Origin: Spirochaetaceae bacterium
Lineage (GTDB): Bacteria; Spirochaetota; Spirochaetia; DSM-2461
Length of the DNA: 64,000 bases
NCBI GenBank assembly: GCA_051531975.1
Contig: JAOPTT010000005.1
Location: 288,001 to 352,000, forward strand
Direction of reading: 5' to 3'
Position numbers: made by a program. Positions 36,101-39,100 of the stretch are shown here, one piece after another; the stretch's first letter is position 1; the number at the start of each line of letters is the position of its first letter.

Positions 36101-39100
36101 TAGTTTAAAGCTTCCAAAAGTCGTCTCTAAGTCGTCATGCACTACTAATATCTCATCTGTATTAATTTTAAAAAATTGCATAGCTTTAACAACAGATTCC
36201 CCGGACTTATTCATAAGAGTCCCAGGTAATATATTTATTATTCCATCGGAATCTTTGTAATATAGAGCATTAAACTTAGACGTGGTTTGTTGGTCATTAT
36301 TTAAACTTTTTTGGAATAACCAACCAATATTATGTCTAGTTCTTTCATACTGTTTGCCCTTGTTGCCTAAAAACACAACCATCTTAATCATAAAAACTCC
36401 TTGGATGCATAGGCGAGCAGAATTTAGTTTCGACCAGCCTTGGATGCATAGGCTTTGTCAGAATCAGTGATTCTGATATTTCGACCAGCTTTAAATTAAC
36501 TATAGTGTAATTTAAATAAAATGAATATAATGGCATTAACAAAATCAGAGAGGTTTAAATGGAAGATAGAATCCCAACATCGGTACTTAGTATTGTAGAA
36601 GCAAAACAGGAGAAAGGTGAAAAATTAACTACTTTAATCTGTAGAATGACAGGTACCTTTAAACCTTTCACCGATGTAGTCATATTCCCAGGTGAAAGAA
36701 AGTTCCAAGTTAGGGATATAACCCAGATAGAAGGGGATAAACATTCAGTTAAAGTTAAAGGTATTCCATTTAAAAACTGTACTCCATTTGCAATTATAAC
36801 ACCTTTAGATTTAAAAGTCAGATATAACAAAGTTGCATACTTTATTCCCACAAGTTTTCATAACAAAGATTTCTTCCCTGGAGAGTACAGTGTTACCGGT
36901 GGTATATTCACCGGTTATAGAATGTTTAATAAAGAGAAAAGTTCCGCTAAGGTAAAAAAATTAGGAAATTTATATTGTGTAAACCTACCATTTAAATCCC
37001 CACTAGTTCCTGGAGCAATATATACTTTTGAGAATACAAAAGGTTTTAAAGGTGAAATGGTTCTAGTTTATCCTGGGGACATGAGTAAAAAGAGTGAAAG
37101 TATTATTAGTTCTAGAATTGAAAAATTCAGATCCAGACCAGGTGTTAAAGGTATTTATTCCATTATTTTAAGAACCGATAACTATGTAGAACTGCCAGGA
37201 TTCTTAAAAGATGAAGAATTTGATGGTTCTATAAAAATGGGTGCCACTAGAATTATGGAGCGAGAGTATAACGCTGTAAAAAACAAAATAATTAAACAGA
37301 GTAAAGCTTCTGGTGGTGTTCTATTTAATTCAGTTAAAAAGAGTTGTAATGTGACTCCATCCTTTTTTCACGCAGTATTAGATCAAATAGTAGAAGCTGA
37401 TGACGTATATATAGAAGGTGACTATCTTGTAAATAATGGACCAGATAAAGCTACCTATCTATCACCATTAACTAAAGAGAGTTATAAATTAGTTGTAGAC
37501 GCAGGAATAGATGGTATAAGCCGTAGAACAATAAAAGATTATGGAATGATAAACTGTTTTTATGAAATTAAGAGAATGCGTTTAGCTGTAGTTTTAGATG
37601 ACGACTTGTATTACAGTCAGGAAGCTTTTAAATTAGTTCTTGGAACTATCTTTAAAGGTCGAAATATTGGTGAGCCTTTAACTATACAAGATATTAGAGA
37701 TTCATCTGGATTATCAAGACGGTACATAATTGCTCTATTAAATAGATTAGAAGACGACAACATTATACATCGAGAGGAAAATGATGACAGGGTTATTAAA
37801 ACAATTCCTTAAACTTTGTTTATTGGTAGTATGTTCATGTTCAATTTCTGCTCCTGTAATAAGGGGACATAATTGGGAAATTACAGCTGTTAAAGATCTT
37901 AAATTAAATAAAACATATGAATCCCTATCTATATTTGTAAATTGTTACGATGATGATGGGGAAAATGATATTGAAACGATATTTTTTATTGATGATAAAA
38001 GTGGATTGTACTGGCAGATAGATTCCTCAAACTGGGAAGAAAAAATAATTGACGATGTTAGGTGGCTTGGGTATTCAACCATAGTAATGGCTGATCGGTC
38101 AGCGATACATAGAAATCCAATCAGAATATATGTAAGAGATTTAGCTGGTGAGTTTGTAGAAGATAAGCTATATATTACAAAAAGAAAAATGGATACAGAT
38201 GAATTATTATATCCAGAATTAATAACTGAAATAGAAACTGATAATTTATCAGTCAAAAACTATGAAGCAGTAGAAGCTTATCTTTTTATTGGTGGTTTAT
38301 CTGTTGCGACTGGTCAAATTACTACTACCCCAAAGAGTTTCAAAAATATTTTTGGGAAACAGAGAACTTCTTTTGAAAATGATGTTGAGATATTTATCAT
38401 AGCAGATGATGGAGACCTGAAATTAAAGTCAGGTCCCTGGTATTAACTTCTACTTTGGATAATTGTTTTTATGTAACTTCCAAATCGCTGAAAGATATTT
38501 TTTCCATATATTTCAGAATACTCTTTAGTCGCTTGATCTAGTGGGAAATCTTGACCATATTTACCTTTAAGGTCATCCCAATGTTTTACGATCCAAATAT
38601 AAAGATCAGACTCTGTTCTATGGTTAAATCTAGATATTAGAGCGTCTTCTCTAACGGTTTTGACAACGGGACTATATAGGTTTTCGAACCAAGAAATTGC
38701 AGCTTCTTTAAGAGTTAATTCCTCTTTCATTCCCTGATTCATAAAATATTTATGACCTAAAATATGATTTAACATCTCCATGTATCGACCAGGTGCAGTA
38801 AAATATATTTCAGACATATCTATGTAGGTCCCTATCTCTGTTTGAGATAACAGATGCTCCCTTTCATACTCTATTACTTTTGTTTCAAGTTCAGTTCTGG
38901 ACATTCCCTTAGTTACAGGGATTTCAGCGTTTAACTCTACAACTTCTGCATCGATAGCATATACTTTTTGCATTTTAGCAACAGAAACCCTATGGTTACC
39001 ATCTCTTACAAAGTATATCTCTCCTATTTTATATAGTTTGATTGGAGGAAGTATAACATCAGAAATATGTGCCTTATCTATACTTACCCACCTATTTCTT

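Follow-up and report, generated by a model that had tools for sequence, protein, structure and literature searches.

A SelB paralogue without the GTPase domain, maintained under selection in thirteen families of Spirochaetia

The 64,000-nt stretch of DNA analysed here (the window) encodes a protein of 417 residues that, by sequence and fold, corresponds to SelB without domain 1. Purifying selection shows it to be a working protein, it has no need of SelA, tRNA-Sec or SelD, and phylogenetic analysis places it within one fast-evolving clade found in 13 families of Spirochaetia. The family is real, SelB-derived and apparently undescribed: like the earlier note on this DNA, our literature search found no published description, most subscription papers and supplementary gene tables being beyond its reach. 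One wide-ranging survey of translational GTPases retained, according to its available text, only sequences with a G domain (PMC4342817), so that a G-less family would be invisible to it. The paralogue, its parts (borders approximate in the case of domain 2, from the model) and its neighbours are as follows, in window coordinates.

35828..36391 (-): peptidyl-tRNA hydrolase gene (pth), divergent (Pfam, loci)
36526..36531 (+): TATAAT, possible -10 box (weak), 33 nt ahead of the paralogue start (sequence)
36559..37812 (+): G-domain-less SelB paralogue, 417 aa (frame, Pfam, profile, model, fold match)
36571..36813 (+): domain 2 barrel, about residues 5-85; Sec/A76 pocket gone, loop missing, K22 and K67-G68 conserved (alignment)
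36814..37080 (+): domain 3 barrel, about residues 86-174, without SelB motifs (model, alignment, 4zu9 superposition)
37081..37443 (+): spacer, reduced WH1 and WH2, about residues 175-295 (profile against PDB, model, superposition)
37456..37617 (+): WH3 with an L-S-P motif, residues 301-303 (alignment, per-domain identity)
37618..37800 (+): WH4; S386-R387 retained, remainder of the SelB motif relaxed (Pfam, alignment)
37781..38446 (+): conserved spirochaete lipoprotein gene, 221 aa, invariant Cys20, two beta-sandwich domains; overlaps the paralogue end
38443..39360 (-): convergent conserved gene, 305 aa, weak DUF4032 match (Pfam, loci)
39360..41410 (-): metallophosphoesterase and TPR/Mrr-domain genes, conserved context (Pfam, loci)

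Coordinates, Pfam, profile and fold agree on the domain layout proposed earlier, in which domains 2-3 and the four winged helices of bacterial SelB are all present and the GTPase domain is absent. The Pfam family SelB-wing_3 matches above cut-off at residues 372-411. A profile built from 30 orthologues aligned with the part of full-length SelBs that runs from about residue 190 to the C-terminus (E down to 3e-44) and, in the PDB, with SelB C-terminal structures (E 2e-8). Searched against 1.84 billion representatives, the profile returned two sets, proteins of about 390-460 aa and full-length SelBs; a Pfam scan of 77 retrieved sequences found GTP_EFTU in the long ones and in none of those of 385-460 aa. 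The structure model (pLDDT 91.5) has 4zu9 (E 2.5e-18) and 5lzb as its best fold matches, and its residues 1-416 superpose on 4zu9 173-582 (377 residues, Z 14.3, rmsd 8.2), with WH1 and WH3 reduced by one helix each as read from the model. No hydrophobic leader could be read from the sequence. Upstream, TATAAT with at most one mismatch occurs in 14 of 17 orthologue leaders, against 8.4 expected; a promoter scan did not call the copy at 36526..36531.

The missing domain was not found elsewhere. Paralogue frames contain no N-terminal translational G domain, and a gene split in two within this genome (G000) was rejected, all 13 GTP_EFTU matches lying in frames of at least 318 aa. The same applies to a stand-alone SelB G domain (best tblastn match at most 38% identity), and five relatives examined had no short G-only frame.

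The genome was earlier described as lacking tRNA-Sec and SelA, and we reach the same result: SelA was not found, and none of 43 tRNAs is tRNA-Sec in a set that is itself incomplete, since Ala and Ile tRNAs are missing too. A relaxed tRNA scan yielded noise alone. For the family (equivalent to the order in this sampling, 38 genomes), the picture of an almost complete lack of both holds for SelA, above cut-off in one genome, and less well for the tRNA: Rfam matches to tRNA-Sec exceed the cut-off in six of the 38, and the four that were checked comprised two Sec and two Ser tRNAs. A tRNA-Sec with a TCA anticodon is thus confirmed in G008 and G030; in the latter (locus L033), a genome 73% complete, SelA was not found. 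Of 46 other chosen carriers, a set that left out four f87 genomes, six have SelA (five strong matches, one weak). SelD is present in 21 of the 38 family genomes and absent from three single-contig carriers (G016, G035, G037), on which grounds a link to selenium metabolism was rejected. In G000 the SelD gene follows a putative selenouridine synthase gene, recognised by eye. True SelB with its G domain coexists with the short gene in G008, as previously noted, and likewise in G566, while G489, G525 and G474 have, close to selA, another frame some 600 aa long. Given this coexistence, the carriers without SelA or SelD and the purifying selection described below, the proposal that a SelB-derived protein has been kept for a role outside selenocysteine insertion is upheld.

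Its range is wider than first thought. Within the family the paralogue is matched in 36 of 38 genomes, which bears out its presence and raises the previous count of 28. The two misses are G034, a closed genome with decayed paralogue fragments just ahead of the lipoprotein gene, and G028, which has neither a paralogue match nor the lipoprotein, perhaps through an assembly gap. The paralogue is not confined to this family, as had been supposed: in a draw of 401 Spirochaetia genomes from 60 families the short form turned up in many further families, and a count over fetched loci gave 77 genomes with a G-less form, 76 of them in 13 families and one, a 214-aa fragment, in a fourteenth (a tally gives about 78 of 401). 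Occurrence is patchy, and five small genomes of families f5, f62, f64 and f90 gave no match. In a phylum-level draw of 401 genomes, mostly of other classes, the strong matches outside Spirochaetia, among those listed, had frames of about 540-830 aa or were shorter pieces taken as contig-edge fragments. In the ESM Atlas, too, the closest pair of clusters comes from Spirochaetota; clusters of 317-440 aa from other phyla may consist of fragments. Members are annotated as hypothetical proteins (Spirochaeta cellobiosiphila, Marispirochaeta sp., Spirochaetes bacterium GWB1_48_6) or as 'SelB C-terminal domain-containing protein'. Eight named loci were located by DNA pattern, two of them with the paralogue.

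In a tree of domain 2 to WH4, a single branch sets the short forms (41 of 78 rows) apart from the rest with SH-aLRT 100, and a mixture-model tree again separates them (20 of 42 rows, support 100/99). As their branches are long, a shared loop deletion (see below) is the safer sign of a single origin. Neither tree recovered the sister group of the short clade; the paralogue probably goes back to an early duplication of a spirochaetal selB. Two unusual records were met in these searches. The 214-aa SelB C-terminal fragment (G550, L144:5639-6283) is a separate sequence from a genome that lacks SelA, where an EF-G-like gene lies two genes before it, and is possibly an independent truncation. In P0159, flagged as contamination of an insect assembly, a short-form homologue is joined to the C-terminus of EF-P, and this fusion may be a gene-calling artefact of two adjoining genes.

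Purifying selection is apparent throughout. The ratio dN/dS is 0.06-0.33 in 17 of 17 orthologue pairs and in both gene halves (Nei-Gojobori; most pairs saturated), and is similar to that of the lipoprotein; the three pairs whose dS stays below 0.5 have 0.14, 0.20 and 0.31. Several lineages carry eroded forms, for which six of seven pairs gave 0.21-0.45 (the seventh was not computable). Those of f66 and f67 stop before the WH4 wing, and some f101 and f105 genes are reduced to WH3-WH4 (126-158 aa), still with a dN/dS of 0.30 at dS 0.75 in the one unsaturated pair. In f87, domain 2 to WH3 is retained (hhalign 96%) and WH4 is replaced by a basic low-complexity tail of 170-370 aa with 20-25% R+K; two such forms (L216:787-2934 and L221:5417-7489) are 690-716 aa long with tails rich in R, G, N and Q. 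What all variants share, wherever the frame extends that far, is WH3 and its L-S-P motif. This truncation series fits nucleic-acid binding, without choosing between the ribosome and free RNA. The paralogue is not essential, given its decay in G034 and its patchy range, and its mean column identity is low (22% vs 81% for uS4, in alignments of different depths).

To see what distinguishes the paralogue from SelB, we aligned 104 short rows, near-duplicates included, with 45 full SelBs (44 retrieved via profile or loci, plus that of E. coli). Of the Sec-pocket residues, D180 is kept in 4 of 104 short rows, R181 in 17 and R236 in 22, against 45 of 45 full SelBs for each; K/R at R252 falls from 45/45 to 25/104. 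The A76 pocket, too, is invariant or nearly so in full SelBs and lost in the short set. In SelB, D180, R181 and R236 bind Sec, and the A76 pocket is described in the available text of PMC4605307 and likewise of bioRxiv 10.1101/2025.02.04.636165. The segment corresponding to E. coli 219-243 measures 24-25 aa in all 45 full SelBs and at most 22 aa in 103 of 104 short forms, nearly all of which lack the loop at 228-235; the SelB motifs of domain 3 are lost as well. With these Sec and tRNA-end residues gone, the barrels should not be called tRNA-binding, as they previously were, and the paralogue, having lost the whole G domain and the aminoacyl-end pocket, is on sequence grounds unable to deliver any aminoacyl-tRNA.

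Other positions were gained. K/R stands at the position of E. coli EF-Tu R223 (K22 here) in 93 of 104 short rows vs 1 of 45 full SelBs, and at that of R279 (K67) in 103 of 104 vs 11 of 45; we take the R279/K67 region to be the second 16S patch of domain II. The domain 2 beta-turn in which K22/R223 lies meets 16S h5 (PMC3950680), and two domain II patches are described as contacting the 16S shoulder (PMC3037878). The turn must have been remodelled, since of its two glycines, invariant in SelB, G187 is kept in 38% of the short set and G189 is lost. Median identities (short vs full) fall in domain 2 (0.21 vs 0.39), domain 3 (0.17 vs 0.28) and WH4 (0.20 vs 0.43) and are held in WH1 (0.17 vs 0.16), WH2 (0.18 vs 0.17) and WH3 (0.26 vs 0.28), the best-kept domain; for WH1-WH2, 'unchanged' may mean equally unconstrained, both sets having low identity there. 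According to the available parts of PMC4605307 and bioRxiv 10.1101/2025.02.04.636165, contact of SelB with h16 and S4 is made by its C-terminal arm, and SECIS is bound by WH3-4. Judged by these alignments, the tRNA- and SECIS-facing parts are relaxed and the h16/S4-facing arm, WH1-WH3, is not. The WH4 motif S-R-K-Y..P is unevenly eroded: R/K at 387 is found in 101 of 104 short rows, S/T at 386 in 79, R/K at 380 in 81, K/R at the third motif position in 49, the aromatic (Y389) in 24 and P392 in 12. The window protein reads S-R-R-Y.

Taking all RNA readings together, RNA binding of some kind is probable. For a GTP-independent RNA-binding factor on the 30S shoulder, suggested by the gained basic residues and the tightly held WH1-WH3, the chance is a little below even. 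On this view the selB duplicate, which no longer has its G domain or the site that holds a tRNA's aminoacyl end, would still use the ribosome-facing surfaces of SelB: the domain 2 basic residues would point at h5 of the 30S shoulder, with the WH1-WH3 arm running along h16/uS4 toward the mRNA entry. The paralogue might then occupy or mark small subunits for maturation, storage or control of factor access, in a mode likened to Tsr1, an inactive GTPase mimic. A bolder version of the idea, rather unlikely, is a lineage-specific, SelB-born ribosome factor: docked at the 30S shoulder and mRNA entry, its GTP-free arm would govern whether EF-Tu, EF-G or IF2 can bind, or would retain subunits through maturation or dormancy, making it in logic a bacterial Tsr1. 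The basic tail that takes the place of WH4 in f87 and the selection on both halves of the gene are consistent with binding to the 30S shoulder; the unkept glycines of the beta-turn, the f101/f105 forms without domain 2 and most of the arm, and a divergence far faster than that of uS4, with patchy range and decay in G034, speak against it. A predicted complex of WH1-WH4 with uS4 scored 0.00, which carries no verdict either way.

The same WH3-WH4-only forms, persisting under selection, would suit a post-transcriptional regulator whose WH3-WH4, the SECIS-binding unit of SelB, holds a SECIS-like hairpin of an mRNA or small RNA off the ribosome, with the barrels accessory. Retention of basic residues at 387 and 380 and of S/T386 points the same way; WH4 is, however, the most relaxed domain, has mostly lost Y389 and P392, and is shortened or replaced in three families, and we regard this regulator as unlikely, though second in likelihood. 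Also against it, synonymous sites inside the gene show no constraint in three genera, except in the first codons in one; an RNA element in the paralogue's own mRNA was looked for in the same data and not found. That the winged helices have turned to DNA, as in a nucleoid or repair-linked protein, is improbable: WH4 gives sub-threshold MarR/HTH matches and some lineages have RecJ or a DNA methyltransferase upstream, but such HTH matches are generic, the ancestry and the retained S-R motif are RNA-directed, and the new conserved lysines sit on the barrel.

The barrels, both under selection and with a basic domain 2, might instead bind the bodies of uncharged or peptidyl-tRNA, as a chaperone or for hand-over to Pth. 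We consider this very doubtful, since the tRNA motifs of both the acceptor-end site and domain 3 have disappeared and the nearby pth gene (divergent or one gene away) is restricted to one family. Finally, long branches, repeated erosion from either end, the decay in G034 and the near-constant overlap with the lipoprotein start could mark a slowly decaying relic, kept mainly as carrier of the lipoprotein's promoter and translational coupling. There is little likelihood of this, with dN/dS at low dS like that of the lipoprotein, intact frames in 13 families, family-specific conserved residues, and retention in five f7 genomes where the lipoprotein is not adjacent.

The lipoprotein had been presented as the paralogue's partner. 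Adjacency is indeed the rule: it directly follows the paralogue in 69 of 75 carriers with downstream sequence, the exceptions being the five f7 genomes and a fragment in f61. Partnership is another matter, as the lipoprotein occurs in 311 of the 401 class genomes (0 of 37 in f5, 7 of 44 in f12) and survives in G034. Among 40 hand-picked lipoprotein loci, mostly from genomes without a strong short-form match, 35 have no paralogue upstream, four have a remnant and one lacks upstream sequence. The lipoprotein is thus a core gene of the class, mostly without the paralogue, and a neighbour rather than a demonstrated partner. In 12 of those loci an acyltransferase-like gene (by eye; the one tested gave a weak PlsB match) directly precedes it, and such a gene likewise precedes the paralogue in several families, so the paralogue appears to occupy a slot in an older gene order. 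A lipoprotein tree recovered no order of gains and losses. With its invariant Cys after a hydrophobic leader and two beta-sandwich domains, the lipoprotein should lie outside the cytoplasm; it has no sequence match in the PDB and no Pfam or NCBIfam family, and its fold matches are generic beta-sandwiches (best Z 8.5).

Upstream neighbours vary with lineage and point both to translation (pth, RlmG-like, EpmA-like) and to DNA (RecJ, DNA methyltransferase), and so do not decide the role. In f7 and f79 the gene directly upstream is that of an RlmG-like rRNA methyltransferase, below the curated cut-off (L108:6328-7446, L119:6379-7491). Within the window no tRNA or Rfam match lies near the paralogue, and in other loci (without tRNA scan) the upstream neighbours are protein genes. 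Two copies of a dispersed repeat of about 50 nt lie between pth and the paralogue (36392-36500); as a binding site they were rejected, the repeat being peculiar to G000, where it occurs on 10 contigs, and absent from orthologue leaders.

Bacterial SelB (4zu9, 5lzb; PMC4605307) is a clear homologue, with the same order of domains 2 and 3, spacer and four winged helices; the paralogue differs from it in lacking the G domain and Sec/A76 pocket, in its relaxed SECIS motif, in its independence of selA, selC and selD, and in forming a clade of its own that occurs alongside true SelB. Archaeal aSelBL (PMC3037878) is likewise a SelB duplicate that occurs more widely than Sec use and whose GTPase function is impaired, and its ribosome patches are argued there to be kept; its structure and Cys-tRNA binding are reported in PMC4329189. 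As far as these sources describe it, aSelBL retains its aminoacyl-tRNA sites and a G domain, though a disrupted one, and has no C-terminal domain, so that the paralogue is its mirror image and arose independently. Tsr1, an inactive relative of EF-Tu/SelB-type GTPases that acts GTP-free on small subunits (PMC4895721), may serve as a model for the proposed role; unlike the paralogue it is eukaryotic and essential, keeps a G-like domain and, in the available account, has no winged-helix arm. SelB*, found beside the tRNA-Cys selC* (PMC5389517), is also a second bacterial selB copy (compared here apart from domain content); as described, it belongs to deltaproteobacteria with a full Sec system and lies next to its tRNA, in contrast to the window paralogue, which has no tRNA gene beside it.

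The family thus offers a second case, and a bacterial one, of SelB recruited away from selenocysteine, with a domain loss opposite to that of aSelBL, and a SelB C-terminal domain match in spirochaetes is no evidence of selenocysteine use. The natural series from full length through loss of WH4 to WH3-WH4 alone maps the surface that matters, and the paralogue can be tested in a cultured carrier, Spirochaeta cellobiosiphila (WP_028973771.1, annotated 'hypothetical protein'). Downstream of the lipoprotein, the block 38443-41410 (-) of DUF4032-like, metallophosphoesterase and TPR/Mrr genes is conserved across many families and fused in L127; for its 305-aa member we assume the label 'ParB-like'. 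Elsewhere in the window we found a Molybdenum cofactor riboswitch (16953-17071, -, 77 bits) and luxS beside a nucleosidase (phosphorylase superfamily) gene (34652-35828, -).
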